This document shows, piece by piece, positions 5,695 to 35,800 of a stretch of 36,649 nucleotides of DNA. The translations under genes and the position numbers were made by a program. The first letter of the stretch is position 1. Each line of letters starts with the position of its first letter. The stretch is from Jimgerdemannia flammicorona (taxonomy: Eukaryota): the NCBI GenBank assembly GCA_003990765.1, contig RBNJ01000210.1, forward strand, positions 1-36,649. The letters run 5' to 3'. The notes below the pieces were generated by a model. It searched no databases, was not told the DNA's origin, and saw nothing but the letters and a program-made list of their open reading frames with translations.

Positions 5695-5781
5695 TGCCTT
5701 AATACCTTTCTCCAATAAATGACTTGAAAGTATGTTGTAAAAGTGTGTGTAATGTGAATTGTAGCAGAGAAAGGTGTACTG

Positions 5782-5881: not shown

Positions 5882-5883
5882 TT

Positions 5884-5901
5884 TGGAGGCTCAACTAGAA
5901 A
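5884..5901 (+). promoter_or_regulatory. Primer-binding site, probably tRNA-Pro (copy A)
   Basis: TGGAGGCTCAAC.. begins 2 nt after the LTR. The consensus with copy B, TGGGGGCTCAAC, resembles the complement of eukaryotic tRNA-Pro 3' ends (e.g. the TGGGGGCTC start of the MLV Pro PBS). Confidence 0.7.
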
Positions 5902-6433
5902 GATTTCAAAATTGACATAACTTTTCAACTTACAAAAACCCACAGTCAAACTGGATATATTTGATATAACACCAATCTCTGTCACTACAGGAGAACCAGT
6001 TATCACTAGCATTTAGACAGGAAGAGAAGTAATTACCTCAAGACTTGCCAACTACCCAGCATCAGAAGGATTCCAACCAGAAACCAGTACAGCCTGAAAC
6101 CCTCAACCAGACCAATCTGACAATATAGGCAGCCCTGTTGGAGATTTTGAAGAACTTGCACAAGAACTAAAAGATCTTATTATATAAGCCTGAAATCTTA
6201 CAGACAGATACCCCATACTAGTCTCATCAATCTCACCCATTGAACTCTTACCACCAGCTCTTGCAGAATTAGAAATAGCTCCTACAAGAATACCTAGGCT
6301 CATTCCACTTCATCCAAGGTCCAGAATACTATCCTCAAGATACCCAAGCACCCCCATCTCCAGTGACAGCTCAGAAAGAAAATCAGAATCAGAATCTGGA
6401 CCAGAACCAGAATCAGAAGAAAGTGACAATGAA

Positions 6434-9400
6434 ATGGTCACCTTATTGCCAATTTTTGCAGAATATCCAAAGGAAGACTCCAGAGAATTCCTTGATGAAA
6501 TTGAAGAAATTGCAGTCCTAAAGAACCTCTCAGATGAAAGAAAAATCACCATCTACAAGGCTCAACTCAGAGAACCAGCCAGAGGAATTTTCCACCAAAC
6601 AGCAAATGACCCCTATTTAGAACTGGTAAGATAAATACAAGCAGCAGCATCCTATGAGCTAGAATATATAGCCATGGTCTACTGGCTTATCAAAAAATAT
6701 GCAGGAAATGAAACCCACTACAAGGCTCAAGAATTCATCATAGAGATGAAGATGAATTTTAGAGAATCACTCAGAGCCTTCTTCATAAGAATCCAGAAAA
6801 TAATGCATGCAGCTGGGTTCAATGCTACCAACTAGGATATCATAGGTCCAATGACCTTCATAAATGAGATTCCTCTGAACATTGCTCAGCATGTCTGCAC
6901 TCTGGGCATCAGAAGGTCTGAAGAGCAAGTAGATGAAGCCTAAGGATTCTTTGATGTCAGATAAGGAACTATCTGGAGTAACTATGACAAGAAAGAAGAT
7001 AAAGAAGACATCCTGGTCAAAGCCCTATAAGGACTCCTCCAAGGATAAGAAAGGTCTGAGGAAAGAAGACCAGCTAAAGAAGGAAAGAAGGACAGGAGTG
7101 AAATTCAAGACCTCAGCTCCAAGTTGGACCAATTGGTTAGACAGATTGAAAAACTCATCATATGCAAAAATTGGAGTTATCATGACAACAGAGGACACCC
7201 ACCACAGAGGAGCCAAGGTTATCCACCTAGAGATAACAGGAGCTACCAGAAAGAGAAAAGAAGGTATTCTGTCTGAGATAGAGTCCAAGTCTAATACTTC
7301 TACTGTAGATAATTTATATACTATGCCACCAAATGTGATAACAAAAGAAGTGACTGAAGGGACTCAGAACCACCAAACTGAAGGAATGACACTCAGTACA
7401 AGAAGACTGAAGTCCATTCTGTTGAAGATTTCGAGAAAGCAAGTAACAGTAAAGACTACAGTGACTTAGACTTGTACTCTACTAAGGTTACTATCTGAAA
7501 AACAGTCTACCCAGCAGAGAAGAGGAAAAGACCTATAGGATGGCCATCCAGGAATATTAGCAGAAGAATTATCTAGGAAGAAGATGAAGAGCATGAAGAG
7601 GAGCAAGTAGAAACACCTCTCCAGACTCCTTCACCTTTTGTCCCTGAGACAAATGAGCTGCTACCAGAGGATGAAGAAATAAAACAAGAAGAATGGAAAC
7701 CTACTGCCCCAAAGCCCAAGAAGAAGTACACCCCAAAGACTATGCCTAGAGATATCTACAATGAAGTCTGGCAGAAGATTCAAGAAGCCAAGATGGAGGT
7801 CCCCATTCTGCAGTTCCTACAACTGATACTAGCTAGAGTCCAAAACAAATTGCTGAGAACCACTAGGTCTAGCACTGGCTGTGTTCCAATCCCACAGCAA
7901 GAGTCTACTCCCACACCTATCCAGGCTGCAGAGAGACATATCAGCATCTATTTACATAGAGACATTGGAGAACAAAAAACGAAAATCCTTATAGATACAA
8001 GAGCAACTGTCTGTATCATTGCCAAGCAATTCCTGGACACCCTCCAATGGCCCATTGATGGACCATCCAACCTCAGTATCATAGTAACAGATGGAGCCTG
8101 AACTCAACCCCTTGGAGAAGTATGAAACATCACTATCTCCCTGGGACACATTCAGTTCTCCATCCTGAAAGCTATTGTTACTGAAGCTATCACCTATGAT
8201 ATGATTCTCAGTACTAACTAGATGAAGGAAATGAATGCAGTTGTTGATATCAGACAACAAGTACTCAAGTTTGACTACTGAGGTAAGAAGTACAGAGTTA
8301 AGGTGACCAGCTATGAGCAATTGAAGAAGAAGAAGATCACTATTCAGAAAGAATATGCCAGCAGTAAAGAGTCTACTACAGAAGAGGAAGAAGAATCTGA
8401 AGACGGAAATGATCCCAGACTCAATCCCAGGATCAACCTAGTGGATGACAGACCAGAAGACAATGTCTGGGCTAAGAACACTGTCCCCATTACCATTGGA
8501 GCTATTGCAGGAGAAATCAAAGGATGTCCTATCTGTCTTAAGAGACACAAGTGCCCTGAGCACTCCTCCAAGATCATTGGGACAAGGAATTTGCCTGGCA
8601 CAGCCTGCCCAGAGTACAGAAAGAAGAAGAAGAAATGCAGATATATTTCAGAAATACCTGCAATGGAAGCCACAGAAGTATAAGCAATTTGGGGTCAAGA
8701 ATCATCCAAGGAAGAAGAAGTTTCTGACCAAGAAGTTTCTGAACAAGAAGCACCCAAAGAAGAAGAGGTCTCTGAACTCATTCCCTGAGATGACCCTCAC
8801 TAGACACTATCTGAAGACAATGACCCTTGGAATATAGAAGAAGGACTCAGTATAATCTCTATTATTTCCAAGAAAGAAACTCACCAAGAAAGGACTTTTA
8901 GGCTAGGAGGATGTCCACACCAAATGGTCTTCTACTCCCCCTGAGACTACTGCTACCAGCGCCACTTGCTAGACCAACAGGAGAGATAGAGACCCCAGAG
9001 ACCAGAACCTTCAAATATAGTTGTACAGTCAACTACCTTCCAAGAAGTTACCACTAAGTTGCAAAGCTGATTCAGGGGACAAGGTCTCTTCACTCAGATA
9101 GAAGTATATCCCTTGTCTACTCTTCCTCCAACTTATGATCAAGATGGATACAGATTCCCAAGATAACAAGAAATCAATAACCAAGAACATCATTTTTGAG
9201 CAATGGGATATTGTAATCATAGAAGACACCCAGACTGCCAAGACTGCAGACATCAGAAGATTCACCTCAGTTATGATATTGCAATCCACACTTTGAAGAG
9301 AGGAGATAATAGAAGCCAGATCTGAAAAAGTCAGACCAAGAAGCCAGGAAGAAGAACCCTTAAGATTTATGATTTGGAAGAAGACATCCTAGCTCTCATC

Positions 9401-10417
9401 AGACATATAACCCACCAAGGATAGATAGAAGATGTCACCAACTTCATAGAAGCCCTAGACCCAACAGGAAGAAGAGGAATCAACTACCTCTGAGATCCCT
9501 CCACTGGAGCCAGATGGCCACACCTCAACCTCAGAGCTTAGAGGCTCTCTGCTAGTAGAGCCTCAGCCCAAGAACAGCCCAAACTCAGTAAGGATGTTGT
9601 CCAGTATGCCCTGCTATATCCAAAGGCCAACTCCCTGACCAAAGCCTACTCAGAAGATGTAGGATATAATCTTCACAGTCTGGAGGATGAATTCATCAAG
9701 CCTGAAAAAACATTCATAGTCAGAACTAGACTAGCCATATAGTCATCTCAAGGAACTTACATACAATTGACCTCAAGGTCTAGACTTGCCAGACAAGGAA
9801 TAACTGTAGAAGGAGGAACTATTGACCTAGAATATATAGATGAAATCAAGGTCATCCTACACAATAGCAGTGCAGAATAGCACCAAATTATTAGAAGACA
9901 GAAGATTGCCCAAGCAGTCTTCATGAAGGTCAAGACCCCACAATTACAAGAAGTCTCTGAACTGACTGAAGGAACAAGACAAGCCAAAGGATTTGGAAGC
10001 TCAGATAAGAAGAAAGTATATCTCCTTCAAGTCAACCACCTCAAGAGGAATGTTCCCCAGCAAGTATATCACCAACTAGTCAGACTGCACAAGAATCTCA
10101 TCCTGGAGCCTAGAGAACAAACCATCTTCGAAATCTTTGCACCACCTGACTCCAGAAATCTCTTCTTTGAACCCAATGAAGATATCCCACACCTGGACAT
10201 AGAAGGATATACCTTCTCAAATTAGATAAACCCAGTGCACTCCTGAGCAATCAACCAAAGTTGGGAAACCATCATCCTGCCAAAAGGAGCCATCATAGAA
10301 TACCTGGTGCCTTTTCTCAACCAAACTCATAGAGAAGTTTATGAACTAAATCTATCAGGAAATGGCAAAAGGTCCTAGAAGAAAGGAAAGGCCCCTCTGC
10401 GACCCAGGAGACAGTGA
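6434..10417 (+). pseudogene. gag: Copy A ORF1 polyprotein: Gag (capsid, CCHC), aspartic protease, Cys/His region, dUTPase, dUTPase-like segment; many stops
   Basis: ORF fragments at 6434, 7742, 8303 and 9923 share one frame. Motifs: LPIFAEYPKEDSREF, ILIDTR (DTG in copy B), GYNL/SRSR/GTIDLEY/KIAQ/GFGSS. Confidence 0.85.
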
Positions 10418-11818
10418 AGCCTTCTACCAATATTGGAGAAGAATTGATACCCCAACAATAGCAACAACTAGCAGAACTCCCCAACAAATATCAAGATATC
10501 TTCACTACCAATTATAGCAATCTGCCATAAAACCCATCATATCACTACAGCATAAATACAGAAAATACAACACCCATCTGACAGAAACCCTATAAAATAC
10601 CCTATCACTTAAAAACATTTGAAAAGGAGTACATTCAAGAACTCTTAGAAAATGGAGTCATCCAACCCTCTACCAGTTTCTGGGCTAGCCCTATACTTAT
10701 TGTACCAAAGAAAGGAGGATGGAGACTCTGTGTAGATTACAGGAAACTCAATTCAGTCACTGAAAAGAATGCCTATCCTTTGCTCAGAATCAATGATCTT
10801 TTGGATCAGTTATAAGATACCAGATACTTCAGCAGTATAGACCTCTTTGCAGGATTCCATGAGATCCCCATGGACCTCAAAGATATTCAAAAGACAGCCT
10901 TTCTTGCTCTAGAAAAACTGTTTGAATATCTCTGAATGCCCTTTGGACTTTGCAATATTCTATCCACCTTTCAGAGAATGATGAATTCAGTCTATGCCTC
11001 CTTAATTCACCACTGCCTGATTGTGTACATAGATGATTCTAATATCTATTCAGCCAACTTTGCAGAACATCTGCACTACCTGGAGGAATTCTTCAAGCTC
11101 ACCCATAAGAACCACCTGAGACTCAATGCCAAGAAATACTACTTCAGGAAACAGAAACTTGAATTCCTTGAATTTATAGTTTTGAAAAAGAGAATCCATA
11201 CAGACCAAAGAAAACCAAAAAGATCAACAATTGGTCAGTATCCAAGACCTCAAAGGAAACATTATCATTTCTGATACTGGTATCCTACTACAGAAGATTT
11301 ATCAAGGATTTTGCCTAAATTACTGCTCCAATCCAAGTCCTTCTCAAGAAAGAAGTATTATTCAAATAGACAGAATCATAAGAGAAAGTCTTCAAAAAAC
11401 TCAAGAACTGTATGATTACAGCACTAATCCTTGTCTACAGAAGCTATTCATCTTGTATACAGATGCTTTCAAAGATGGTATAGGAGCAGTTCTAGCCCAG
11501 GAAGGATCTGACTAACAATACTATATAATAGCTTATATAAGCTGAGCTACCAATCAACAGCAGATGAACTATAGCAGCACCAAATTAGAATGCCTTGCAG
11601 TCATATAGATGGTCACTCTGTTCAAGCATTATCTCATTAGAAAAAGGTTCACCCTGATCACAGATCATATAGCCCTCAAATAGCTATTCAACTGCAAGAA
11701 ATCTACCAGAATTCTGGCCTGCTGGATCCTTCTCCTTCAGGATTACAAAATCACCATTATTTACAAAGCAGAGAAAACTCACAACAATATTTATATACTT
11801 TCTCACCAGCCCCAATGA
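10363..11818 (+). pseudogene. pol: Copy A reverse transcriptase-RNase H, disrupted
   Basis: [51 protein letters not shown]. Confidence 0.92.
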
Positions 11819-12879
11819 ATCAGAAAAAGGGTGTCCCAAGGAACTATACTCTAAAGGAAACTTCTCAGACCATCAAGATACAAGAAGATCTCATCCAAAA
11901 AGAACATCAGAAAGCCCACCAAGGACAAGCAAACATAGAAGAAAAGTTGTGACAACATATCAGCATTGGCTCAATCTCAGAATATAAGTTTGGGACATAC
12001 TTAAGAAATGTAACACTTGCCAGAAGTACCAAGAAAGGAAGAACTACCAAGCACCACTGCAACCAATCATACCACCAGACAATATCTTTCAGAGATGGAG
12101 AGTAGATATAATTAGACCCTTATCAGTTACACTAAGAAGAAATAAGTATATTCTAGTATTTGTGGAACATCTGACCAAATGATCCAAGGCTTTCCCAATG
12201 GAAATCACAGATACCTTAACCATTGTAGGCCTTCTCCATAGACTCACCCTCAGATATAAACCTCTAGAAGAACTCATCTCTGACTGAGGTATAGAATTCA
12301 TCAATAATATAATCACAAGTTATGTCTGAATTCACAAGATCCACCTCAAATAGACCACATCATACTACCTCCAGACCAATGGCATAATAGAAAGAATGAA
12401 TCAGACCATCAAGAAAGAACTTGCCCAAGTCAATCCTACCAACTGGGACCTCAGCTTACCTGAGATTCTATGGGAGATTCAGAATACCCATGCTGCCTCT
12501 ACCAAACAAAAGCCATTTGAAATGATTTTTGCTAAGAAAACCAGAACTACTGATTAGAGACCTCCTCAAGAAAGCAGAATAGCTATGTAATCAAGCCCAA
12601 GCCCAGATTATCAAGGTCCAAGAAAGACAAAAGAAGTACTATAACCAGAAACAGAAGGATCAGAAGATTAAGATTGGAGATCAAGTACTAATTTGGAGAA
12701 GTATAATTGAAATGAATTTTGCTACCAAATTGGAGCCCAAATGGAAAAGACCTTATCTTGTACATAACATCTGAGAAACCAGTATCTATTTAAGAAGCAT
12801 GGATAGATGGACCCTCAGAACACCAGTACACATCAACTGTCCCAAGATATACCTCTCCCATCATAAACCAGACAATTGA
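11815..12879 (+). pseudogene. Copy A integrase, in a separate frame starting at an ATG that overlaps the RH stop; disrupted
   Basis: H-QKA-H..C-NT-C zinc finger, VDII, ISD, QTNGIIERMNQ, KLEPKWK(R)PY. Confidence 0.88.
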
Positions 12880-14425: not shown

Positions 14426-14429
14426 ATAT

Positions 14430-17330: not shown

Positions 17331-17334
17331 TTAG

Positions 17335-19273: not shown

Positions 19274-19433
19274 TATAACAGACCCAAAACATACTATTTG
19301 AATTATAACTTAGCCAGATGATGCGAACAATTAGTATACTTACTCAGCATGATGTGACTTCTAGTGTATCATAGTTACTCATATCTGCTACACTTATAAT
19401 TAGCCAAGATACCAGATCAGGATTGTTTACCTG

Positions 19434-19525
19434 TGTCCTGAAGACACACTCATGTCCTGCGGACACACTCATGTCCTGTGGACACACTCATGTCCTGTAG
19501 ATATACTCATGTCCTGTGGACACAC
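19434..19525. repeat. 19-bp tandem repeat (TGTCCTGCGGACACACTCA), ~5 units, in U3
   Basis: Five tgtcctg starts at a 19-bp period, against four in the 3' LTR (28685-28757). Confidence 0.92.
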
Positions 19526-19609
19526 CTGTACTCAGAGGATACACCCAAACATTACCGAAAATAGCAAATCTATAGTTAGCCACATAGTAACCAGATAGCA
19601 ACCAACTTG

Positions 19610-19615
19610 TATAAA
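19610..19615 (+). promoter_or_regulatory. Putative LTR TATA box
   Basis: TATAAA at the homologous position in all three full LTRs (13682, 19610, 28842), downstream of the palindromic arrays. AATAAA follows at 19636. Confidence 0.55.
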
Positions 19616-20922
19616 TTACTCCAGAGACGAGAGTGAATAAAACCTCAGTCCGAAATTGAAGCAAAAGACATGTCTGCCTACCACACTTCGAGAGGAACTC
19701 TACAGCTACTGCTAGGAGATTGTGAGCTTATTTCCCCACTCTGGTCCACTTTCCAATACAAAGAATAAGTCTGAATTGAAGTGCAAACCAAAGAAGCCTC
19801 TAAAGATTGAGCATTGGTCCCCTTATTCCACTCCAGTCCACTTTCCAATACAAAGCTGAAGATTTGCTGCCAAGTTCAAGGAAGAACTTCACCACCTTTG
19901 AGAATTCTTGTTATTGGTTCGCTTGCCAGATAAGCCTGAAGATTTTCGCCTTTTCTGCTTTTTACACCACTTAAGAGAAAGCTGCCTTGCTCAAGTCAGT
20001 TTCTGATGTAACTTCACAGTGGAGCCAGTCTATGATGCAACCCCATGCAAATGAAGCCAGTCTTTGACATAACTTTGCTAAGAGACCCTTTCCAAGCCAC
20101 CCTCCCATTTCCCAGTTAGAAATCACCAATTCAGGAAGAATCCACATCACCTGCTGTTTTTGAGTTATCCACTATATTCCCAGTTGAAACCGATTCAGGA
20201 AGAGTCCGCACCATCCGAGTTAATTCCCAGTTAAGCTGCCATTTTCAAGAAGTCCGCCGATTCAGGAAGAATCTGCGTCATCTGCCATTCCCAAGTTATC
20301 TGCATTCCCAGTGAGCCCGAGAAGAATCTGCCACCAGCATTATTCCCAGTTACTCGAATTATCCGTGCCATCCGAGCTATTATTCCCAGAAGAAGAATCT
20401 ATGCCATATATTCCCAGTGAGCCAAATTGAGTTATCCGCTGGATTATTAGAATATCCTGCATAAGGAACCCACCACGCTACACAGAGATTGTCGTGCTAC
20501 ACAAGATCATCATACAGAAACCACATAAGGAGAACTGCTAAATTGCCAGATCATCACACAGAAATCACATAAGGAGAACTGCTAAATTGCCAGACCATCA
20601 CCCACAAGGAGATCATTGCGCTACACAGAAATCACCCATTACTCAAGAAGGAAACTGCTCATGCTACACACAAATTCTGCCATTCCCAGTTGACCCAGGA
20701 AGGAAACCCATTCACACAAATCACTGCTATATCCAGAGAACCGTCCCAATAAGGAAATCACTCGCAGATATCCAGCTTTGACTATTATACTGCTAAACAC
20801 CAAGGACCTCAGGAATCTTGGAACATTTTGTTGCTTTTTGACAAAGTAACTGGGGGCTCAAGCCAAACTACATCAACTCCCAAACCTTGTAATTTGCCTC
20901 CATTGAGCCGGCACATAACATT

Positions 20923-20940: not shown

Positions 20941-21147
20941 ATTTCAAAATCGACATGACTTTTCAGCTCATAAGAACCCACAGTCAAACTGGATATATTT
21001 GATACAACACCAACCTCTGCCACTATAGAAGAACCAGTCATCACTAGCATTTGGACAGAAAGAGAAGTAATTATCTCAAGACTTGCCAACTACCCAGCAT
21101 CAGAAGGATCCCAACCAGAAGCAGGAGGCAGTACAGCCCGAAATCCC

Positions 21148-21192
21148 CAACCAGATCAACCAGATCAACCAGATCAACCAGATCAACCAGAC
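21148..21192 (+). repeat. 9-bp tandem repeat (CAACCAGAT)x5, in frame with gag (QPD repeats)
   Basis: Read directly from the sequence; copy A has about 2 units at ~6104-6121. Confidence 0.9.
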
Positions 21193-21504
21193 AATGCAGG
21201 CAGCCCTACCAGAAATTTTGGAGAACTTGCACAAGAACTAGAAGACTTTATTACCCAGACCCAACACTTTACAGCCAGCCACCCCACACTAGTCCCACCA
21301 ATCTCACCAATAGAACCCCTACCACAACCTCTTGCAGAACCAGAAGTAGCTCCTACAAGGATACCTAGGCCTATTCTACCCCACCCAAGGACCAAAACAT
21401 CATCCTCAAGATACCCAAGCACCCCTGTCTCTAGTGACAGTTCAGAAAGTAAATCAGAATTAGAATCTGAACCTGAACGAGAATCAGAAGAAAGTGATGA
21501 CAAA

Positions 21505-22560
21505 ATGGCCACCTCATTGCCAACCTTTGTAGGATATCCGGAGGAGGACCCCAGAGAATTCCTTGATGGAATTGAAGGAATTGCAGCCTTGAGAAACCTC
21601 TCAGATGAAAGTAAAATCACCATCTACAAAGCCCAGCTTAGAGAACCAGCCAGAGGAATTTTTCACCAAACAGCAAACAACCCAGATTCAGAACTGGCAA
21701 GACAGATACAAGCAGCATTCTCTAATGAGTTAGAGTATGAGGCCATGGTCCATTGGCTCATTGAAAAGTATGCAGGAAATGAACCCTGCCATAAGGCTCA
21801 GGAATCCATTATGGGAATGAAGATGAATCTTGGAGAATCACCAAGAGCCTTCTTCACAAGAATTCAGAAGAGAATGCATTCTGCTGGATTCAATGCCACC
21901 AACCAAGACATCATAGGTCCAATGACCTTCATGAATGGAATTCCTCCAAATATTGCCCAGCATGTCCACACCCTAGGTATCAGAAGGTCTGAAGAGCAAG
22001 TAGATGTAGCCCAAGGATTCTTTGATGTCAGGCAAGGAACTACCTGGAGTGATCATGATAAGAAGGAAGAAAAGGAAGATATCCTGGTCAAAGCCCTGCA
22101 AGGACTCCTTCAAGGACAAGAAAGATCTGAAGAAAGAAGGCCAGCCAAGGAAGGAAAGAAGGACAGAAGTGAAATTCAAGACCTCAGCTCCAAGTTAGAC
22201 TGATTGGTTGGACAGATTGAAAAACTCACCATACATGAAAATCAGAGCTACCAAGACAACAGAGGATACCCACCACAGAGGAGCCAAGGTTATCTACCAA
22301 GAGATAACAGGAATTACCAGTAAGAAGAAAGAAGGTACCCTGTCTGAGACAGAGCCCAAGTCCAATGCTTCCACTGTAGATAATTCAGACACTATGCCAC
22401 TGAATGTGACAACAAAAGAAGTGACCGAAGGGACTCAGAACCACCAAACTGAAGGAATGACACCCAGTACAAGAAGACTGAAGTCCATCCTGTTGAAGAT
22501 TTCGAGGAAGCAAGCAACAGTGAAGACTACAGTGATCTAGACTTGTACCCTACCAAGGTT
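21505..22560 (+). pseudogene. gag: Copy B Gag: retrotransposon capsid and CX2CX4HX4C nucleocapsid knuckle
   Basis: LPTFVGYPEEDPREFL..GESPRAFFTRI..FMNGIP. In-frame CFHCR*FRHYATEC at 22366-22407. Confidence 0.9.
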
Positions 22561-23009
22561 ACCACCTGAAAGACAGTCTACCCAGCAGAAAAAAGAAAGT
22601 GACCTGTGGGAAGACCATCCAGGAACATCAGCAGAAGAATTATTCAAGAAGAAGATGAAGAACATGAGGAGGAACAAGTCGAAACACCTCCCCGAACCCC
22701 CTCACCTTTTGTGCCTGAGACAAATGAACTGCCACCAGAAGATGAAGAAATGGAACAAGAAGAACGGGAACCTGCTGCTTCAAAGCCTAAGAAGAAGTAC
22801 ACTCCAAAGACCATGCCTAGAGATATTTATAATGAAGCCTGGCAGAAGATTCAAGAAGCCAAGATGGAAGTCCCTCTCCTGCAGTTCTTGCAACTGATAC
22901 CAGCTGGAGTCCGAAACAAATTGCTGAGAACCACCAGGTCTAACACTGGCCAAGTTCCAATCCCACAGCAAGAACCAGCCTCCATCCCTGTCCAAGCAGC
23001 TGAAAGACA

Positions 23010-23390
23010 TGTCAGCACCTACTTACATGGAGACATTGGAGGACAAAAAGCAAAAATCCTTATAGATACAGGAGCAGCTGTCTGTGTCATTGCCAAACGA
23101 TTCTTGGACACCCTCCAATAGCCCATTGATGGACCATCCAACCTCAGCATCATAGTAGCAGATGGAGCCCGAACTCAACCCCTTGGAGAAGTATGAAATT
23201 CACTATTTCCCTTGGACATATTCAGTTCTCCATCCCTAAAGCTGTTGTCACTGAAGCTGTCACTTATGACATGATTCTTAGCACCAACTGGATGAAGGAA
23301 ATGAATGCAGTTGTTGATATTGGCCAACAAGTACTCAAGTTTGACTACCGAGGCAAGAAGTATAGGGTTAAGGTGACCAGCTATGAGCAA
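23010..23390 (+). pseudogene. Copy B aspartic protease
   Basis: KILIDTGAAVCVI (DTG at 23065-23073), IVADG, YDMILSTNW. One stop and a copy-specific 1-bp deletion near 23200. Confidence 0.92.
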
Positions 23391-24689
23391 TTAAAGAAAA
23401 AAAAGAAGGTCACTATTCAAGAAGAATATGCCAGCAGTGAGGAGTCTACTACAGAAGAGGAAGAAGAATCTGAAGATGGAAATGATACCAGACTCAATCC
23501 ACGAATTAATCTGGTGGATGACAGACCAGAAGACAATGTGTGGGCCAAGAACACTATCCCTATCACCATTGGAGCCATTGCAGGAGAAGCCAAAGGATAC
23601 CCTACATGCCTCAAGAGACACAAGTGTCCCGAGCACTCCTCCAAGATCATGGGAAAAAGGAAATTGCCTGGTGCAGTCTGCCCAGAATGCAGAAGAAAGA
23701 AGAAGAAATGCAGATATGTTCCAGAAACACCTGTGACCAAAGCTGCAGAAGTACAAGTAATTTGGGGTCAAGAATCATCTGAGGAAGAAAAAACTTCTGA
23801 CCAAGAAGTTTCTGAACAAGAAGTACCTGATGAAGAAGAAGTCCCCGAACTCATCCCCTGGGATGACCCTCGCTGGACACCACCTGAAGACAATGATCCC
23901 TGGAATACAGAGGAAGGACCCAGTACCATCACCACTATCTCCAAGAAAGAAACCCACCAAGAGAAAGCTTTCCGGCTAGGAAGATGTCCACATCAAATGG
24001 TCTTCCACTCTCCCCGAGACTACTGCTATCAGTGTTATCTGTTGGACCAACAAGAAAGACAGAGACCCCAGAGACCAGAACCCCCAACTACTCTTGCACA
24101 GTCCACCACCTTTCATGAGGTCACCACAAGGTTATAAAGTCGATTTAGGGGACAAGGCTTCTTCACCCGAACAGAAGTATACCCCTTGTCTACCCTTCCC
24201 CCAACCTATGATCCAGATGGGTACCGATTCCCAAGACAATAAGAGATAAATAGCCAGGAACATCATTTCCAAGCAATGGGATATTGTAACCATAGGAGAC
24301 ACCCTGATTTCTGAGATTGCAGACATCAGAAGATCCACCTCAGTCATGATGTTGCAGTGCACACCTTGAAGAAGAGAGATAACCGAAGCCAGATTCGAAA
24401 AAGTCAGATTCGAAAAAGCCAGACCAAGAAGCCTGGAAAAAGAATTCTCAAGATCTATGATTTGGGAGAAGACATCCTAGCCCTCATCAGACATGTAACC
24501 CATCAAGGATGGGTAGAAGATGCCACCAACTTCATGGAAGCCCTTGACCCTACAGGAAGGAGGGGAATCAATTATCTCCGAGACCCCTCTACTGGAGCCA
24601 GATGGCCACACCTCAACCTTAGAGCTTGGAGGCTTTCCGCTAGTAGAGCTTTAGCCTTAGGAAAGCCTGAACTCAGCAAGGACATTGCC

Positions 24690-25095
24690 CAGTATACCCT
24701 GCTGCACCCCAAGGCCAAACCCCCGACCAAAGCCCACCCAGAGGATGTAGGATATGATCTTCACAGCCTAGAGGACAAATCCATCAAGCCTGGAAAAACC
24801 TTCATGGTCAGAACTGGATTAGCCATACAGCCACCTCAAGGAGCTTATATTCAACTGACCTCAAGGTCCGGACTTGCCAGACAAGGAATAACTGTAGAAG
24901 GAGGAACCATTGACCCTGGATATATAGGCGAAATCAAGGTTATCCTACACAACAGCAGTGCAGAATAGCACTGAATCATTAGAGGACAGAAGACTGCCCA
25001 AGCAGTCTTCATGAAGGTCAAGACCCCACAGTTACAGGAAGTCTCCGAACTAACTGAAGGAACAAGACAAGCCAAGGGATTTGGAAGTTCAGATA
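24690..25095 (+). pseudogene. dut: Copy B trimeric-type dUTPase domain
   Basis: All five motifs are present: VGYDL, SRSG, GTIDPGYIGEI, K(T/I)AQ and RQAKGFGSS. Two internal stops. Confidence 0.95.
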
Positions 25096-25450
25096 GGAAA
25101 GAGGTACATCTCCTTCAAGTCAACCACCTTAAGAGGAATGTTCCCCAGCAAGTATACTGGCAACCAGTCAGACTATACAAGAATCTCATCCTGGAGCCTA
25201 GAGAACAAACCACCTTCGAAATATTTGCACCACCTGACCCCAGGAACCATTTCTTTGAACCCAAGGAAGATATCCCATACCTGGACATAGAGGGACACAC
25301 ATTCCCTGACAAGATGAACCCAGTACACTCCTGAGCAACCAACCAAAGTTGGGAGACCATCATCCTGCCAAAAGGAACCATCATAGGACATCTGGTGCCT
25401 TTTCTCAACTGAACTCATAGAGAGGTTTATGAATTAAACCTATCAGGAAA

Positions 25451-26917
25451 CAGCAAAAGGTCCCAGAAGAAAGGAAAGGCCCCTCTGCGACCCAGGAGAC
25501 AGTGAAGCCTTCCACCAACATTGGAGAAGAATTGATACCTCAACAACAGCAACAACTAGTAGAACTTCTCAACAAATATCAAGATATCTTCACCACTGAT
25601 TATGGCAACCTGCCATACAACCCATCATATCACCACAGCATAAATACAGGAAGTGCAACACCCATCCGGCAGAAACCCTATAGAATACCCCATTACTTGA
25701 AAATATTCAAAAAGGAGCATATCTAAGAACTCTTAGACAATGGAGTCATCCGACCCTCTATGAGCCCCTGGGCCAGCCCTATACTTATTGTACCAAAGAA
25801 AGGAGGATGGAGACTCTGCATGGATTACAGAAAACTCAACTCAGTCACTGAAAAGGATACTTATCCTTTGCCCAGAATCGATGACCTTTTGGACCAGTTA
25901 CAAGATGCCAGATACTTCAGCAGTATGGACCTCTTCACGGGATTCCATGAGATCCCCATGGACCCCAAGGACATTCAAAAGACAGCCTTCCTTGCTCTAG
26001 AAAAACTGTTTGAATATCTCTAAATGCCCTTTGGACTCTGCAATGCACCCCCAACCTTCCAGAGGATGATGAATTCAGTCTATGCCCCCTTGATCCACCA
26101 CTGTCTGATTGTATATATGGATGATTCCAACATCTATTCAGAAAATTTCGAAGAACACCTGCACCATCTAGAGGAATTCTTCAAGCTCACCCACAAGAAT
26201 CACTTGAGACTGAATGCAAAGAAATGCTACTTTGGAAAACAGCAACTCAAATTCCTTGGATTCATGGTCTCAAAAGAAGGAACTCATGCAGACCCAAAGA
26301 AAACTGAGAAGATCAACAATTGGCCAGTACCCAAGACTCCAAAGGAAACACTATCATTCTTGATGCTAGTATCCTACTACAGAAGGTTTATCAAAGACTT
26401 TGCCCAAATTGCTGCCCCAATCCAAATCCTTCTCAAGAAAGGAGTGTCATTCAAATGGACAGAATTACAGGAAAAAGCTTTCAGAGAACTTAAGAACTGC
26501 ATGACTATAGCACCAATCCTTGTGTGCCCCAATCTACAGAAGCCATTCATCTTGTATACAGATGCTTCTAAAGATGGCCTAGGAGCAGTTCTAGCCCAAG
26601 AAGGACCTGACCAACAGCACCATGTGATAGCTTATGCAAGAAGGGCCACCAACTAGCAGCAGATAAACTATGGTAGCACCAAACTGGAATGCCTTGCAGT
26701 CATATGAGTGGTCACCCTGTTCAAGCATTACCTCATCAGAAAAAGGTTCACCCTGATCACAGATCATGCAGCCCTCAAATGGCTATTCAACTACAAGGAA
26801 CCTACTGGAATTCTAGCCCACTGGATCCTCATCCTTCAGGATTACAAAATCACCATTATACACAAAGCAGGGAAAGCTCACAACAATGTTGATGTACTTT
26901 CCTGCCAGTCCCAATGA
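25451..26917 (+). pseudogene. pol: Copy B reverse transcriptase-RNase H
   Basis: [75 protein letters not shown]. Single frame with stops. Confidence 0.96.
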
Positions 26918-27989
26918 ACCAGAAGAAGGGTGTCCTGAGGAACTACACCCTAAAGGAAGCTCCTCAGACCACTAAGAAACAAGAGCATCTCATCTGACAA
27001 GAACATCAGAAAGCCCACCAAGGATAGACATGCATAGAAGACAAGATTTGAAAACAATATCAACATTGGCCCCACCTCAGAGCTCAAGTACAGGACATCA
27101 TTCAGAAATGTGATACCTGCCAGAAGTATCAAGGAAAGAAGAACTATCAAGCCCCTCTGCAACCGATTCCCCCACCCACTCACATCTTTCAAAAATCGGG
27201 AGTAGATGTAATTGGACCTCTACCAGTTACACCAAGAAGAAACAAATACATCCTTGTATTTGTGGAACATCTGACCAAGTGGCCCAAGGCTTTCCCAATG
27301 GAAATTGCAGATGCCTTAACCATTGTAGGCCTCCTCCATGGACTCACACTCAGATATGGACCTCCAGAAGAACTTATCTCTGACCAAGGCACAGAATTTG
27401 TCAACAACATAATCACAAGTTATGCCAGAATTCACAAGATCCACCTCAAAAGGACCACATCATACCACCCTCAGACTAATGACATGACAGAAAGAATGAA
27501 TCAGACCATCAAGAAAGGACTTGCCCAAGTCAATCCTACTAATTGAGACCTCTGCTTACCTGAAGTCCTATGGGAAATTCGGAATACCCCTGCCATGTCC
27601 ACCAAACAAAACCATTCGAAATGATGTTTGCTAAGAGAACCAGAACTGCTGACCATGAGAATCTCGGAGACCTCCTCAAGAAGGCAGAACAGTTACGAAA
27701 TCAAGCCCAAGGACAGATTATCAAAGCCCAGGAAAGACAAAAGAAGTACTATAACCAAAAACAGATGGATCAGGAGATCAAGATTGGAGATCAAGTCCTA
27801 GTTTGGAGAAGTATGATTGAGACAAACTTTGCTACCAAACTAGAACCAAAATGAGAAGGACCTTATCTTATACACAACATCAGAGGAACCAGCATCTATT
27901 TAAGAAGCATGGATGGACGAACCCTGAGAACACCAGTACACATCAATTGCCTCAAGATATACTTCTCACACCATGAACCAGAGAATTGA
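26914..27989 (+). pseudogene. Copy B integrase (HHCC, DDE core, GPY/F C-terminus; no chromodomain), separate ORF
   Basis: ATG at 26914 is in frame with HQKAH..W..CDTC, GVDVIGPLP, SDQGTEF and YHPQTN..ERMNQ. KLEPK(W)EGPY follows a copy-specific 1-bp deletion near 27610. Confidence 0.92.
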
Positions 27990-28524: not shown

Positions 28525-30152
28525 TGTAACAGACCCAAAATGTACAACTTAAATTATAACTTAGCCAGATAATGCAAACAATTAGTATACTTACTCAGCA
28601 TGATGTAACTTCCAGTATATCATAGTTACTCATGCCTGCCACACTTATAATTAGCCAAGATACCAGATCAGGATTGTTTACCTGTGTCCTGAAGACACAC
28701 TTATGTCCTGCGGACACACTCATGTCCTGCAGACACACTCATGTCCTGTAGACACACCTGTACCCAGAGGATATATCCAAACATTACTGAAGATAGCAAA
28801 TCTATAGTTAGCCATATAGTAACCAGATAGCAACCAACTTGTATAAATTACCCCAGAGACGAGAGTGAATAAAACCTTAGTCTGAAATTGAAGCAAAAGA
28901 CAAGTCTGCCTACCACACTTTGAGAGAAACTCTACAGCTACTGCTAGGAGATTGTGAGCTTATTTCCCCACTCTGGTCCACTTTCCGATACAAAGAACGA
29001 GTCTGAATTGAAGTGCAAACTAAAGAAGCCTCTAAAGATTGAGCATTGGTCCCCTTATTCTACTCCAGTCCACTTTCTGATACAAAGCTGAAGATTTGCC
29101 GCCAAGTTCAAGGAAGAACTTTGTCACCTTTGAGAATTCTTGTTATTGGTTCACTTGTCAGATAAGCCTGAAGATTTCTGCCTTTTCCTCTTTTTACACT
29201 ACCTAAGAGAAAGCTGCCTTGCTCAAGCCAGTTTCTGACACAACTTCGCAGTGGAGTCAGTCTATGACACAACCCCACACAAATTAAGCCAGTCTTTGAT
29301 GTAACTTTACCAAGAGACCCTTTCTAAGCCGCCCTCCCGTTTCTCAGTTAGAACCCACTGATTCAGAAAGAATCCACATCACCTACCGTTTTTGAGTTAT
29401 CTACCATATTCCTAGTTGAAACTGATTCAGGAAGAGTCTATGCCATCTGAGTTAATTCCCAGTTAAGCTGCCATTTTCAAGAAGTCCACTGATTCAGGAA
29501 GAATCCACATCATCTGCCATTCCCAAGTTATCTGCATTCCCAGTGAGCCCAAGAAGAATCCTCCACCAGCATTATTCCTAGTTACTTGAATTATCCATGC
29601 TATCCGAGCTATTATTCCCAGACGAAGAATCCACACCATATATTCCCAGTGAGCCAAATCGAGTTATCAGCCAGATTATCAGAATGTCCTGCATAAGGAA
29701 CCCACCATGCTACACAGAGATCGTCATGCTACACGAGATCATCATGCAGAAACCGCATAAGGAGAACCACTAAATTGCCAGATCATCATGCAGAAATCGC
29801 ATAAGGAGAACTGCTAAATTGCCAGGCCATCATGCATAAGGAGATCATCATGCTATACAGAAATCACCCATTACTCAAGAAGGAAACTGCTTGTGCTACA
29901 TACAAATTCTGTCATTCCCAGTTAACCCAGGAAGGAAACTCATTTACACAAATCACTGCTATACCCAGAGAACCATCCCAATAAGGAAATTGCTTGCAGA
30001 TATCCAGCTTTGACTATTATACCACTAAACACCAAGGACCTCAGGAATCTTGGAACATTTTGTTGCTTTTTGACAAAGTAACTGGGGGCTCAAGCCAAAC
30101 TACATCAACCCCCAAACCTTGTAATTTGCCTCCATTGAGTCGGCATGTTACA
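28525..30152 (+). repeat. 3' LTR of copy B (1628 bp)
   Basis: TGTAACA...TGTTACA perfect 7-bp inverted termini; direct repeat of 19274-20920. Confidence 0.97.
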
Positions 30153-30680: not shown

Positions 30681-30764
30681 CAGCACCTCTCTCTGCTACA
30701 ATTCACATTACACACACTTTACAACACACTTTCAAATCGTTTATTGGAGAAAGATATTAAGGAG

Positions 30765-32799
30765 ATGTCAACCAGTAAGCGAGCTGATGCATATCCTAAG
30801 TCGGGTGGACCTGGGGCCTTCGACTGGCAGCATGTCAGGAGAGGGTATAGACTGGGGATGGGGTCTTTTGGTGGATCGAGTGGACTGGGCAGCTCAGGGG
30901 GTAGAGGAGGCACTGGTGGGGGGGCTGGAGGGTAGCAGGGAGGGAGCTTTGCAGATGCACTTAAGGCTGGGGGTTGGCTGAGGGGTGCCCACAGTGGACA
31001 GGCAGGAGGAAAGGGGAAGCAGAAGGTTGGCGATGCTGGGGGAGCTGGGCCTTCACTGGTGGGAGGTGGAGGGAGTGGAGTAGTGGCTGGGGGTAGTGGT
31101 GGGACTGCTGATGGTAGTGTGACGGTGAATCAGAAAAAAAAAAGAGATGTGACAGCTGATGGCCAGGGGGGGCAGGGGCTCCCGATGCGGAAGGGGGACC
31201 TGGCTGATGGTGTAATGGGACTGGTGGTGGCCCCATTGCTCAAGAAGTCAATCTCGGAGTTTGCGGCTACCTTGTGCTTCTGGGGCTTGGCAGTGATGGT
31301 GAGGATGGTTCTGGAGCTTATCTCAAGGCAGGTGGTGGGTGCGGCCTCGGTGAAGTTCTTGAAGGGCATGGAGGGGGTTGAGGTGAGCTTTGAGGAGGCA
31401 GGCCTACTGGATGAGGCCATGAAGACAGGAGTGGTGGTTGGGGAGGTGGTGGTCCCCATGGTAAGGTGCTTGAGGTGGGACCCCAGGGTGGTGCAGCTTC
31501 TAGTGAGGGGGGTGCCCACAGTGACTAAGGAGGAGACTAGGAGGAGGGTGGAGGAGGTGATGGTAGAGTATGGAGACGTGGTGGACATTGGATTTCAGTT
31601 GTGGGAGGGGACAACTATCAGGACAGGCAACATCGATGTCAGGATTTGGTTGGCAGGGAAGGAGGCCACAGAGAAGATGAGTGACTGTCCCTCGGTGCTG
31701 ATGTGGGGGGCCATCATCTGCAAGGTGTCAAGGGTGAAGGGGAGTGAAGAGGAGGAGGAGGACTTGTTGGAGGTGCTAGAGGAGTTGGGTGGTGCTGTGG
31801 AGAGGAGGGCGAAGGCCTGGAAACTGTATGAGGAATCGACATATCTGGAGGTTGTGGGCGGGAGGCGTATCCATATGGATAAGAAGCAGTGGGAGTGGGT
31901 CCAGGGATGCAAGAGGCAGAAGGAGCTGTTGGTGAGTATGACAGGTAGAGGGAAGAAGAAGTCGGGTGAAGCTGAGGAGTCTGGAGGTGCTGAGGCCAGT
32001 GTCTGAGCTGATAAAGGAGGAGAGGAGGTAGAAGCGAAGGAGGCAGAGGCTGGGAAGGGGCTGGACAAGGACCCATTTGCTGATGGTACCTTTGAAGTGT
32101 GGGAGCCAGAGTTGGATGCCACCCTCCCCCCCACTTATCAGGAGGGGCCCAGTGGGGAAGAGAGGGACGACAGAGGATACACAGATGCAGGGGGCCCAGC
32201 AGGTGCACTTTAGGGTCCCTGATGTGGCTCAAGAGGGTCAGGTGGTGGCAGTTGGTGAGGATGAGCTGGTGGATGTCCCTGAGGGGAAGTGGGATGAGGC
32301 TGCTAGTGTAGGAGCTGACACCATGATGTTGGATGCAGGGCGACTGGGGACTCCAGGAGGGAAGGAGGTGGGGAACTTGTTGTGGGTACACAAGGTGATG
32401 GATAACCTCGCAGCAGAAGCATTGGAGGAGGTAGACCTGTGGGTGATACCTGAGGAGCATTGGGTAAGGATCCTGCATGGAGATGGAATGGTGGAGGTAC
32501 TGAAGGTGGAGATTCTGGTGATTTTGCTAGAGGAGGAGGGATATGAGGTTGATGAGGTGAGGAAGGCAGAGCTGGGGGTGGTTGCCAGTGAGTGGGCAGA
32601 CTACTGTTGGGCAGAGCATCGGGGTCTGCAGCTCTGGCAGGAGGCCTGTCTGGAGTATCGCAAGGATTTTGAGGAGCATGAGGATGGGGCAATGGTAGAA
32701 CTTCTGAGAGAGTTGGAGGCACAGGAAGCTGGGGAGAGGGAACTGGCTGCTGAACTTAACTTGGACTTGGTGCAGGAGAGGCAGGATGCCGACTTATAG
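30765..32799 (+). pseudogene. LINE copy 2 ORF1 (~680 aa; Gly-rich N-terminus, SFADAL motif, RRM-like core, acidic helical C-terminus)
   Basis: Two stops (30933, 32004) and a +1 shift in the C-run near 32130. LLVRGVP..EYGDVVDI..IRTGNIDVRI. Confidence 0.87.
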
Positions 32800-32831
32800 A
32801 GGATGGACTCTGATATATATCATTATTCTTT

Positions 32832-35800
32832 ATGAACAGTACAACCAATATTTTTTCTTTGAATGTGAATGGGCTAAGGGGATCTGGGCGGCATCGGAAT
32901 ATTTTTACTTGGCTCAAGGGATTGGAGGCTGATCTCTTTTTATTGCAGGATATTCAATGTGAGGATGAGGATGATCAGGCAGAGTGGACTAGGGAGTGGG
33001 GGGGGGCTGCTGCTTGGTTTGGAAAGGTAGTGATTCTGGTGAGGAAGGGCAGAGGAGACTTGGGGGGAGTCAGGAGCTGGGGCGATTGCTTGGTCTGGGG
33101 AGATTGGCATCGGCCAGGGTGGGAATCGGTGAAAGTGGGCTCTTGCTACTACCCTGCAGCTAGGGGTAAGAGGATTGCATGGATTAGGGGATTGCTGGAG
33201 GAGGGTATTCTCTTGGAGGAAGGGGTCGATGTTCTCAGTGGGGACTTTAATATGGTTTAGGATCAGCATCTGGACAGAACTGATGGAGGGAGGAGTGCCA
33301 GGGGTAGAAGTGGAGGTCTGGATGCATGGGAGGAGGTGGAGATGTTGAGCTCCTTGGGGGATATGGGTAGAATGAGGTGGGGTGACACCAGGGTTTACAC
33401 ACATTGGGTGAATGGCCTGGGCACAAGGATTGACTGGATTCTGATGGTGGAGTGCTGGGGTTTGGATGTTTGGAAGGCATTGGAAGTAGAGTGGTGCCCA
33501 TGGTCTGATCACTGGAGACTGTTGGGGCAGAGGCAGTTTGGGGGGAGTGGAGATGGACCCAGACATTGGTGCCTTAACTCCTCCCTGCTGGCTGAGAAGG
33601 GGCTGTGGGAACTGTGGGTGGAGGACATTCAGGCAAAAGTTTTTACCTAGAAGCATGAGGGTTTGCCTGTGGCTGTCCGCTGGATGAGGTTGAAAGAGGC
33701 TGCAAGGGTTTATTGGGGAGAGGCTGGTAGAGAGGCTGGGAGGCAGAGAAGGAGGTACACAAGGTGTGCTTCCAGCAGGCTGAGGAGACTACAAATAGAT
33801 TGGGCAGATTTTCTCACTGTTGAGGGGGTGGAGGACTGGAGGATAGAGAGGGCAAAATTGGAGATAGTGGAACTACGACAGATGCTGAGGGAAGAGGAGG
33901 AGACCCATATGCAGGGCATGGCTGCTAGGCTGCAGTGGCAGGGGCTTGAGGAGGGTGAGCAGCCTACTAGGTACTTATCGAGACTTCTCAAAGCTAGGAG
34001 AGTGCATCATCGGTGGGATGGGGTCCTGGATGCTGATGGGGACATGGTTCATGGCACGCAACAAATCCTGGGGGTCTTGAAGGAGAGATGGCAGGGTTTG
34101 TGAAGTGAGGGAGAAGGGGGTGCAGATGAGGCAGAGATTGTGAATACACTAGATGAGTGGGGGCCACCACAGGTTGCTGGACTGAGGGACTTGATCTTAC
34201 CAGTGCAGGGGGAGGAGATCCAGAGTGTCCTGGCAGCAACTAAGCTTGGGACAGCACCAGGGGAGGATGGATTGTCTTGGGACTTCTGGAAGAAGATGGT
34301 AAATATCCCTGGAGTGTTGGGCAAGATGACTGATCTTTGTGACCATGTCCTTCAGAGTGGTGAGTGGGTTGGAGAGCAGGATCTGAGGCTGGTGGCCTTA
34401 CTATACAAAGACAAGGGAAGGAGGGAAGACTGGAAGAACTGGAGGCTGATCATGCTTCTGGATATGGACAGGAAGATGGTGACTAGAGTGATTGTCACAA
34501 GGCTGCAGAAGGTTGCCCAACAGGTGCTGGGGGAAGGGCAGTGGGGCTTTGTTGGGGGCAGACTAATAAGAGATGGGACTGCATGGGTTCATGGTGTCAT
34601 TGAAGGGGCCCGGGCCTATGGACTGAATGGAAGGTTGGTCTTTCTGGACCAGGAGAAGGCCTATGACCATGTATGGCGGGTGTGGCTGGGAAAAGTGTTG
34701 GACTGAATTGGTGTTCCCCCAACATTTAGGGCCTCTATGTTGAGTCTGCTGGAAAGTAGTCAGGCAGCTCTGACGTATAATGGTCACCATGGGAGGGCAT
34801 TTTCCTTGGGAAGAGGAGTACCTCAGGGGGACCCTCTATCCCTGATTCTCTATGCCCTGTCACTGGAGACATTGATGGATAGGATTCACTAGAAGGTAGC
34901 AGGACTCTCTATATATGGTATAGTGTGGAAGGTGGGGGCCTTTGCTGATGATATGGTGGTTAGACTTGGGTCTGTGGCAGATGTAGAGACACTTCAGAAG
35001 ACTGTGGAATGGTATGAGGCTCACTTGGGGGCGAAACTCAACTGGTATAAGTGTGAGACAATGGTGCTAGGGAATGGGCTAGTGAGTGGGGATGTCATTG
35101 GAACAATTGTCCCTACTGATGAGATGGTGCAGTATCTGGGCATCTTCCTCTCTGTATATAGTTCTGTCTTGCCATGAGTGTGGTGGGAGAGCAGGGTGAA
35201 TAGTTGGGGGGAGGTCCTTCGAGGATGGGGAGGCTGCCATATCTCTCTAGCAGAGTGGGTGTTGATCCTGAATGTATATTGGTTCTCAAAGCTATGGTAT
35301 GAGGCATATCACCTCGACTTCCCAGCATGGGTGGTGGAGAAGCTGATGAAGGTGGCTAGGGATTGGATTTGGGTGGGGAGGAGGACCCAGGTCAGTTGGG
35401 ATACTCTTGCGAGACCGGTAGTCAGGAGAGGTCTTGGTCTGGTGGATTTCTCTAAGAGACTGTACTGCTTGAGAGCCTGGTGGTTGAAGAGAGCTGTGGA
35501 ATTGCAGGGTGGAGGTTGGATGCCTCTGCTGCAGAAGGTATGGGAGATGTGAACATCCCCCCGAGGGTCCTCTGGAGATCTGCTCTCTTTGGTGGGGCTG
35601 AATGGAGTTCAGAGGCTGCGGTTCAAGGGCTTATGGTAGGGAGTAGAGTGTCAGTGGGGGCTTGGCCAGGACCTTTGGCCAAGTAGCTGACAGGCAGTTG
35701 GAATTGGAGAGGAGTAGGACTGGGCAGGTATCTGGTCTTGGAGTGCTGAGGTACAGAGGTGGCTTCCTCCAAAGTTCTGGGTGGTATGGTGGTAAATGTT

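Follow-up and report, generated by a model that had tools for sequence, protein, structure and literature searches.

We analysed a 36.6-kb stretch of the Jimgerdemannia flammicorona genome (contig RBNJ01000210.1, positions 1 to 36,649; hereafter the window), a nest of retroelements that includes two copies, A and B, of one Ty3/Gypsy long terminal repeat (LTR) retrotransposon. In both copies the frame for reverse transcriptase and RNase H (RT-RH) closes just where an ATG opens a second frame that encodes integrase (IN), and comparison with relatives makes it very probable that IN forms a cistron of its own, started at an AUG of its own. Among the ways in which this cistron could be translated, termination-coupled reinitiation emerges as the most likely one, with about an even chance of being correct. 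The complete proposition, namely that the RH/IN frame break is an ancestral and selected feature of a Ty3/Gypsy clade that makes IN by reinitiation, seems to us evenly poised between right and wrong. A wider formulation, which in our judgement falls just short of that balance and is offered tentatively, is that an old Ty3/Gypsy clade of Glomeromycotina (arbuscular-mycorrhizal fungi) makes IN by coupled reinitiation and RT-RH probably via -1 frameshifting, and would represent the first LTR retroelement with IN outside the Pol polyprotein.

Stop and start codons at the RH/IN junction

In copy B, the RT-RH frame reads ...HKAGKAHNNVDVLSCQSQ (..NNVDVLSCQSQ) and ends with the TGA at 26915-26917, while integrase lies in the -1 frame, which opens with the ATG at 26914. 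The IN start codon (26914-26916) and the RT-RH stop codon therefore overlap as ATGA at 26914..26917 on the forward strand. Translated from this ATG, the -1 frame reads MNQKKGVLRNYTLKEAPQTTKKQEHLI*QEHQKAHQG*TCIEDKI*KQYQHWPHLRAQVQDIIQKCDTCQKYQ..., followed by the IN core. These readings agree with a first-pass annotation of the window, as does the position of the HHCC zinc finger, which had been placed about 30 codons past the ATG: in copy B its first His is codon 31 and its CxxC occupies codons 67-70. Copy A has the same junction, with ATGA at 11815..11818 (forward strand) within cccaATGA (11812-11818), and the same -1 frame relation. The reported lack of a slippery heptamer also held, in that the 22-nt zone open in both frames of copy B contains no in-phase X_XXY_YYZ. 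The short stretch before the finger, described at first as a missing linker, is genuine and measures about 30 residues in the window family versus 65-75 residues in 80 of 110 standalone IN relatives.

A point absent from the earlier annotation is that the IN frame is closed in both copies. The IN frame of copy B has five stops in its first 293 codons, those at codons 28, 38 and 46 falling between the ATG and the CxxC, and then breaks, and the RT-RH frame of this copy has four internal in-frame stops. In copy A, codon 46 of the IN frame is a stop, and the finger has lost 1 nt. Both window copies are old, dead insertions of a split-pol element, and the window alone could not exclude a shared inactivating indel.

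The DNA junctions of relatives were obtained by one metagenome scan with an IN alignment, which gave 80 loci; the same scan of viral contigs gave one distant locus only (L001, 31% identity), which is uninformative for the junction. The most informative locus, L005, is 81.0% identical to copy B across 3834 nt and 77.0% identical to copy A across 3563 nt. Its RT-RH frame is open for 494 codons and its IN frame for 361 codons from stop to stop, or 354 codons from the ATG, and its junction reads ...VDVLSRMTQ* / MNQRKGVPRN... on cccaATGAacc. The first-pass annotation had named two findings that would count against it, namely RH and IN sharing one frame in intact relatives and a consensus of ACGA. 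In L005, the most intact relative found, the two frames differ, both ORFs (open reading frames) are open and both are under purifying selection, and ATGA is read in copy A, copy B, L005 and the distant element L004. A bare ATGA is uninformative, but its recurrence at the homologous site in L005 and L004 is a pattern beyond chance.

Two smaller observations concern the L005 junction. The window family has shed some 35-40 residues of the IN N-terminal extension, yet retains the Met and the stop-start junction (26914-27010 in the window; 2791-2890 in L005). The last RT-RH codons of L005 (2782-2794) are AUG ACC CAA UGA, with an in-frame AUG 9 nt before the IN AUG; they possibly form a three-codon mini-ORF that ends on the same AUGA.

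The junctions of other relatives vary in spacing and frame. In L004, whose IN shares about 42-45% amino acid identity, the junction is gaagaATGAat in the -1 relation. The frame relation is also -1 in L007 (TGAtcATG) and in L003 (ATGgatcTAG, a 10-nt overlap), and it is +1 in L002 (ATGaacacTGA, an 11-nt overlap). In L011 a TAG is followed by 30 nt and an ATG in the same frame, with a second in-frame stop in the gap, and the decayed, AT-rich loci L010 and L034 have gaps of 30 and 8 nt and frame relations of 0 and -1, respectively. Altogether, the stop-to-ATG offset lies between -8 and +33 nt in all ten DNA junctions, with a frame relation of -1 in seven, +1 in one and 0 in two, and this proximity spans subclades that share less than 50% RT-RH identity. 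The proposed conservation of ATGA was thus upheld for copies A and B, L005 and L004, and did not extend to the clade members with TGAtcATG, with 10-11-nt overlaps or with a 33-nt same-frame spacing. The conserved trait is a stop beside the AUG, not the ATGA tetranucleotide. Since the frame relations include -1, +1 and 0, no fixed recoding event would explain all of them, and an AUG can.

The RH end and the IN start could both be placed at 61 junctions. At 38 of these, all in more distant relatives, RH and IN share one stop-free frame; 11 junctions, including those of both window copies, are split; and the remaining 12 are broken without a homologous Met. The last set was considered as a source of further split elements and rejected: these loci (L001, L036, L039, L051, L054, L058, L060, L061, L062, L064, L071 and L074) lie outside the clade and have their breaks in RH or the linker. 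They read as probable decayed copies of the fused type, L001 less surely so than the others.

The same division is apparent among proteins. We searched longer proteins with the RT-RH frame and considered the best 120 matches, none of which exceeds 49% identity. RH and IN are in one open frame in most of the long protein relatives. However, nine of the best 120 end 2-3 residues past the ..D.LSR motif at the end of RNase H (P0058, P0064, P0074, P0077, P0079, P0091, P0111, P0112 and P0116; P0079 is a Rhizophagus clarus protein), and four more end 13-30 residues past LSR (P0050, P0069, P0061 and P0107). No rve/integrase domain was found in any of these 13 shortened pol proteins. An arachnid protein marked as partial, which ends 32 residues past the LSR motif (P0015), was excluded from the count. 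In P0062 and P0081, which belong to the same clade, pol continues for 236-314 residues past RNase H with a Cys/His-rich segment (..HHVHTYC..C.RNLPYGT.VH..C) and no integrase domain.

An exhaustive phmmer search with the IN frame revealed many free-standing integrases of about 400 residues amid fused polyproteins, and when such sequences were aligned with the window IN, all 10 of 10 shared the first Met at one invariant position. In a second search, with the L005 IN as query, the HHCC finger is present in 110 of the best 120 proteins, which range from 194 to 620 residues. A Met start lies 50-86 residues before the first His in 95 of these 110 proteins (MN in 42, MD in 31 and ME in 20), at the head of an N-terminal extension with the motif M[NDE]xxxY..L..YL. 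The only named organisms among the standalone integrases are R. clarus, R. irregularis and Entrophospora candida; the remainder come from metagenomes or unnamed assemblies. One protein, P0169, seemed to carry an ALSR motif in frame with IN; this candidate was rejected, as its N-terminus parallels the out-of-frame reading of the RH end in the L002 IN frame from an upstream ATG.

Selection on the two frames and phylogeny of the split

The ratio of nonsynonymous to synonymous substitution rates (dN/dS) was calculated for two pairs of elements. The comparison of L005 with copy B, where dS is near 0.75, yielded 0.11 over the 490 codons of RT-RH, 0.13 over the 68 IN codons from the Met to the CxxC and 0.09 over the 164-codon IN core, in contrast to 0.86 and 1.81 in out-of-frame controls shifted by one base. 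Between L002 and L003, the value for IN from the ATG was 0.10 versus 0.88 in the control, with dS saturated. Each cistron has therefore been maintained in its own frame through a long divergence, an outcome that a shared dead-end indel could not give. The proposal of the first-pass annotation that IN is made as a separate protein is strongly supported by comparison.

We also aligned contigs of four public runs (three soil metagenomes and one coded organism) to positions 26300-27700 at a likeness of at least 80%. At two IN stops and two RT-RH stops of copy B nearly all aligned contigs carry another letter, and the stops that break copy B are private to it. Not one of the 40 base differences with the best support, nor any of the 10 indels listed, falls within 26910-26970, with 281 lesser differences lying outside this listing, which supports, without proving, ATGA as the majority reading among family copies. 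Across 26300-27700, the differences of copy B from the aligned copies are mostly transitions with T or A in the window, which fits C-to-T decay of a silenced copy.

Two trees were reconstructed from RT-RH sequences. The FastTree tree comprised 111 rows, of which 69 were proteins at least 44% identical to L005 (those below 44% were left out) and 42 were loci. In this tree the 21 rows that stop after RH, together with P0062 and P0081, form one group of 23 (support 87), nested in a 24-row group (support 98) with the fused protein P0098. A quick IQ-TREE search was restricted to 47 rows, with a hand-picked set of 25 fused rows and with L073 left out for its long branch and odd composition; here a branch with a support of 99 in the Shimodaira-Hasegawa-like approximate likelihood ratio test parts 24 fused rows from the 22 split rows and P0098. 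In P0098, a linker of about 25 residues separates RH from the homologous IN N-terminal segment, in which even the corresponding position is a Met; the split therefore sits at a natural domain boundary. The trees thereby place the split elements in one clade with deep internal branches, a topology compatible with a single origin of the split but no proof of it. All clade members that bear organism names are Glomeromycotina.

Possible mechanisms of integrase expression

In the split clade, pol ends a few codons past the ..D.LSR of RNase H, and the IN cistron starts at its own Met, the beginning of the IN N-terminal extension, with the AUG on the upstream stop or within about 33 nt of it. In the window family and in L004 the stop and start codons overlap as AUGA. 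In the mechanism that we favor, ribosomes that finish the long RT-RH ORF on genomic RNA would reinitiate at the adjacent AUG, and IN would be a free protein, probably present in a lower amount than RT, that joins the particle or the preintegration complex outside Gag-Pol. Termination-coupled reinitiation requires a stop next to the restart codon, as found at every junction, and the conserved Met, the variable frame, the second stop in the L011 gap and the scarcity of heptamers together argue for initiation at an AUG over recoding.

Several observations weigh against this mechanism or limit the evidence for it. Reinitiation past an ORF of at least 500 codons is normally very inefficient without a promoting element, and no such element was evident near the junction. 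Within the 120 nt upstream of the stop, fold z-scores ranged from -2.13 to +1.70 in eight loci with no consistent signal, as judged by nested folding in which pseudoknots were not searched; the 120 nt downstream of the stop were unremarkable in four loci (-1.3 to +0.7). Nested folding did predict one hairpin in L005 and copy B, which ends 9 nt 5' of the ATG (26867..26905 on the forward strand in copy B), and a GC-rich hairpin in L004. However, the hairpin of L005 and copy B lacks covariation support (337 of 500 shuffles did no worse, with three sequences), and its arms are conserved codons, those for AGK and LS(R). The UGGGA core of TURBS (the termination upstream ribosome-binding site) is absent from the 120 nt upstream in all ten junctions, complementarity to the host 18S rRNA not having been tested. 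The state of the elements is a further concern: L005 is not fully intact, having one in-frame TGA within the dUTPase domain; L003 has a stop inside its IN frame, and the L002 and L003 stretches used for dN/dS contain one stop each; and the L010/L034/L073 family is decayed. ATGA itself is seen in the DNA of only three independent lineages (the window family, L004 and, as sequence only, L002), and the closeness of stop and AUG is partly expected, since an out-of-frame reading soon meets a stop. Finally, the fused P0098 falls inside or beside the split clade, and the trees are unrooted.

The upstream junction of L005 is different. Its RT-RH ORF has no AUG near its start and overlaps the upstream ORF by 72 nt (1310-1382, homologous to about 25430-25500 in the window), and this overlap holds an in-phase G_GGA_AAC at 1322-1328, with only one other such heptamer in the 494 codons. 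L005 thus seems to use ordinary -1 frameshifting at the dUTPase-to-RT junction and a different device at RH/IN. The spot homologous to this overlap is altered by an indel in copy B. We also considered programmed readthrough of the in-frame TGA that L005 and copy B have in common in the dUTPase domain, which lies at 24315-24965 in the window and in the stretch 3-1382 of L005; the dUTPase motifs continue past this TGA. This was rejected, as copy A has a sense codon there, and parallel decay is the simpler and more likely explanation of the common TGA.

Four other explanations of the junction were weighed. The first is that a dead lineage shares one inactivating indel, while its active relatives are fused and the split database proteins are artefacts of calling genes on broken copies. 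This would accord with the death of both window copies, whose LTRs are merely 90% alike, with the other defects borne by several split loci and with the nearness of the fused P0098 on the tree. We nevertheless regard it as extremely improbable, given dN/dS values near 0.1 for the two frames over a dS of roughly 0.75, repeated in the second lineage (L002/L003), the L005 ORFs open on both sides of the junction, the same Met start in 95 of 110 standalone integrases, the nine pol proteins that end 2-3 residues past LSR, and the grouping of split rows on deep internal branches. A programmed -1 frameshift or hop before the stop, of the kind usual between gag and pol, giving an RT-RH-IN fusion to which the AUG would be incidental, gains some credit from the -1 relation in seven of ten junctions, an in-phase C_CCA_AAC in the overlap zone of L003 and the apparent use of -1 frameshifting elsewhere in the family (the G_GGA_AAC of L005). 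That same heptamer serves as a positive control for the absence of any in-phase slippery heptamer in five of six overlap zones (L005, copy B, L004, L007 and L002), and the zone is just 22 nt long in L005 and copy B. Moreover, L002 is +1, RH and IN share a frame in L011 and L010, a further in-frame stop interrupts the 33-nt gap of L011, and frameshifting would not demand an invariant Met at a homologous site, so that this explanation is very improbable.

The two remaining alternatives place initiation at the same AUG by other routes. An internal ribosome entry site (IRES)-like element in the RNase H coding region could recruit ribosomes to the IN AUG independently of termination. The conservation of that AUG and the predicted hairpins just upstream in L005/copy B and, GC-rich, in L004 are compatible with it, but no conserved structure was found, the z-scores are mostly within noise, covariation is absent and the tight stop-AUG spacing is given no reason, and we rate such an element as quite improbable. 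Expression from a separate mRNA is a serious rival, if in our estimate an unlikely one. Here IN would be translated from a spliced subgenomic RNA, or from a transcript of an internal promoter in the RNase H region, with its AUG reached by ordinary scanning, as is known for env of errantiviruses and Pol of foamy viruses. This accounts for the conserved AUG and the free-standing IN ORF as well as reinitiation does, no reinitiation element was found, and in copies A and B a CAG preceded by a pyrimidine tract stands 7 nt before the ATG. However, the CAG at -7 is confined to the two window copies and absent from L005, and neither L005 nor L002 has any AG within 40 nt before the ATG. A conserved 3' splice acceptor was not found in these 40 nt, though one may lie further upstream. 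A separate mRNA also does not require an adjacent upstream stop, yet one is present in all ten junctions (-8 to +33 nt). The aligned contigs show no joint at the junction, which says little as they are DNA or of unspecified kind.

The separate IN cistron sets these elements apart from canonical Ty3/Gypsy retrotransposons, in which PR-RT-RH-IN form one polyprotein cleaved by the protease (PR). They match these in their LTRs, in gene order and in having RT, RNase H and an integrase with HHCC and DDE; in contrast, throughout the clade, the window, L005 and L004 included, pol closes behind RH and a separate AUG begins IN. A usually fused enzyme is likewise expressed alone in foamy viruses, where Pol has a separate spliced RNA, and Ogre elements have an intron inside pol; splice sites have been demonstrated in those systems, whereas no conserved acceptor lies near the AUG here. 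The full-text literature, subscription journals and Repbase notes aside, yielded no paper in which an LTR retrotransposon is described as having a separate ORF for integrase. A table of fungal Gypsy structures (Additional file 1 of PMC2864245) falls outside that scope and could hold such cases; passages of PMC2864245 and PMC2582038 concern dUTPase and the arrangement of gag/pol ORFs.

The parallel with victoriviruses drawn in the first-pass annotation stands for the AUGA and the -1 relation and does not extend to the upstream pseudoknot. In Helminthosporium victoriae virus 190S (HvV190S), as here, a stop and a start codon overlap as AUGA (the stop of CP, the capsid protein, and the start of RdRp, the RNA-dependent RNA polymerase), the downstream ORF is in the -1 frame and yields, here presumably, a protein of its own, and the host is fungal. 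The HvV190S signal is described in part of PMC6631646 as a 38-nt cassette of the AUGA and an H-type pseudoknot immediately upstream, which is necessary and sufficient. The window family, in contrast, has only a predicted hairpin, in one family and lacking covariation, with no pseudoknot search made; and the comparison is between an LTR retroelement and a dsRNA virus, and between RT-RH and IN and CP and RdRp. In relatives of this victorivirus the two codons form UAAUG or are spaced in other ways (PMC6631646 and PMC8625083), a variety that resembles that of the Gypsy clade. More generally, excerpts of PMC6631646, PMC8625083 and PMC10275272 treat AUGA/UAAUG stop-restart as established in fungal viruses, including victoriviruses, hypovirus CHV1 and Mucor victoriviruses.

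TURBS systems share with the split elements a long upstream ORF and a stop and start that overlap or lie near each other. They need a motif complementary to 18S rRNA (motif 1, with the core UGGGA, matching helix 26, within about 100 nt upstream of the stop), and they differ in this from the ten junctions, all of which lack the core upstream. In caliciviruses and in influenza B M1/BM2, reinitiation follows a long ORF at a close or overlapping out-of-frame stop and start, according to the section of PMC10275272 on such systems. Coupled termination-reinitiation at UAAUG operates in the non-LTR retrotransposon SART1 and in CHV1, as far as the relevant parts of PMC10275272 and PMC2699510 go. SART1 is alike in being a retroelement with a downstream ORF at an overlapping stop/start, and CHV1 in being a fungal virus. 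SART1 differs in being non-LTR, in coupling a gag-like ORF1 to ORF2 and in needing structure downstream of the stop, where the folds here are unremarkable. Closer in descent are the Caulimoviridae, relatives of Ty3/Gypsy that have no integrase and express consecutive ORFs by reinitiation or leaky scanning; ATGA-linked ORFs occur in badnaviruses and tungroviruses. The likeness lies in closely spaced or ATGA-linked ORFs on a polycistronic pregenomic RNA. A difference is that reinitiation in cauliflower mosaic virus (CaMV) depends on the viral transactivator TAV, as stated in the portion of PMC10275272 devoted to it. Leaky scanning would be impossible past several kb of coding sequence.

If IN is produced in this way, several consequences would follow. 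Expression would step down over three levels, from Gag-PR-dUTPase to RT-RH to IN, and IN would have to be recruited in trans to the particle or the cDNA, with its conserved N-terminal extension as a possible means. The accepted view for retroviruses and LTR retrotransposons is that integrase reaches the particle within Gag-Pol and is released by protease. A clade that keeps IN as a free-standing cistron under purifying selection would break this packaging rule, and it raises the questions of what packages IN or brings it to the cDNA, what sets its dose and whether M[NDE]xxxY..L..YL is a docking piece. The clade would also provide a case from cellular genomes of stop/restart after a long ORF in fungi, AUGA/UAAUG restart being known so far from mycoviruses, and its junctions offer a natural mutational series with overlaps of 4, 10 and 11 nt and stop-to-ATG gaps of 2, 8 and 30 nt. 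Where annotation pipelines look for a fused pol, such elements will be called broken or their integrase will be missed.

Layout of the element and the window

Domain content and order identify the element as a Ty3/Gypsy (Metaviridae) retrotransposon: LTRs flank an internal region with the Pfam order RVT_1, RT_RNaseH_2, RT_RNaseH, Integrase_H2C2 and rve, and the nearest relatives of the RT-RH frame are gypsy pol proteins. Copy B lies on the forward strand between a 5' LTR at 19274..20913 and a 3' LTR at 28527..30145, which were paired by blastn (19276-20913 versus 28527-30145) with 90.4% identity across 1638 nt. The gag-side ORF (20974..22203, 409 codons) matches no Pfam family, and the protease region (22603..23121) gives weak matches below the Pfam cut-off (gag-asp_proteas, E 0.0016; Asp_protease_2, E 0.0054). 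A dUTPase domain (24315..24965; PF00692, E 3.2e-17) lies between protease and RT. The RT-RNase H frame (25430..26917), in which RT_RNaseH matches at 26708-26914, shares 84% amino acid identity with the open 494-codon ORF of L005. The decayed integrase cistron extends over 26914..27977, its end being estimated from the L005 alignment, and comprises the HHCC finger, the DDE core and a C-terminal part, with Integrase_H2C2 and rve matches within 27052-27543. The internal region of copy A (5883..12856, forward strand) is 81-90% identical to copy B and more decayed, and blastn comparison locates remnants of its 3' LTR at 13634-14055.

Further features lie in and around the two copies. Both LTRs of copy B have a tandem repeat with a 44-nt unit near their 3' part (20504-20607 and 29736-29839). 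Between the 3' LTR remnants of copy A and copy B, the region 14000-18000 is AT-rich (27-28% GC) and may be host background or heavily decayed sequence. The window ends (1-5741 and 30718-36324) are inverted copies of another retroelement, 73-85% complementary over 10 arms, with an RVT_1 match at 34104-34703, and both Gypsy copies sit between them. These ends show a strong strand skew, with a GC skew of about -0.4 at the left and +0.4 at the right.

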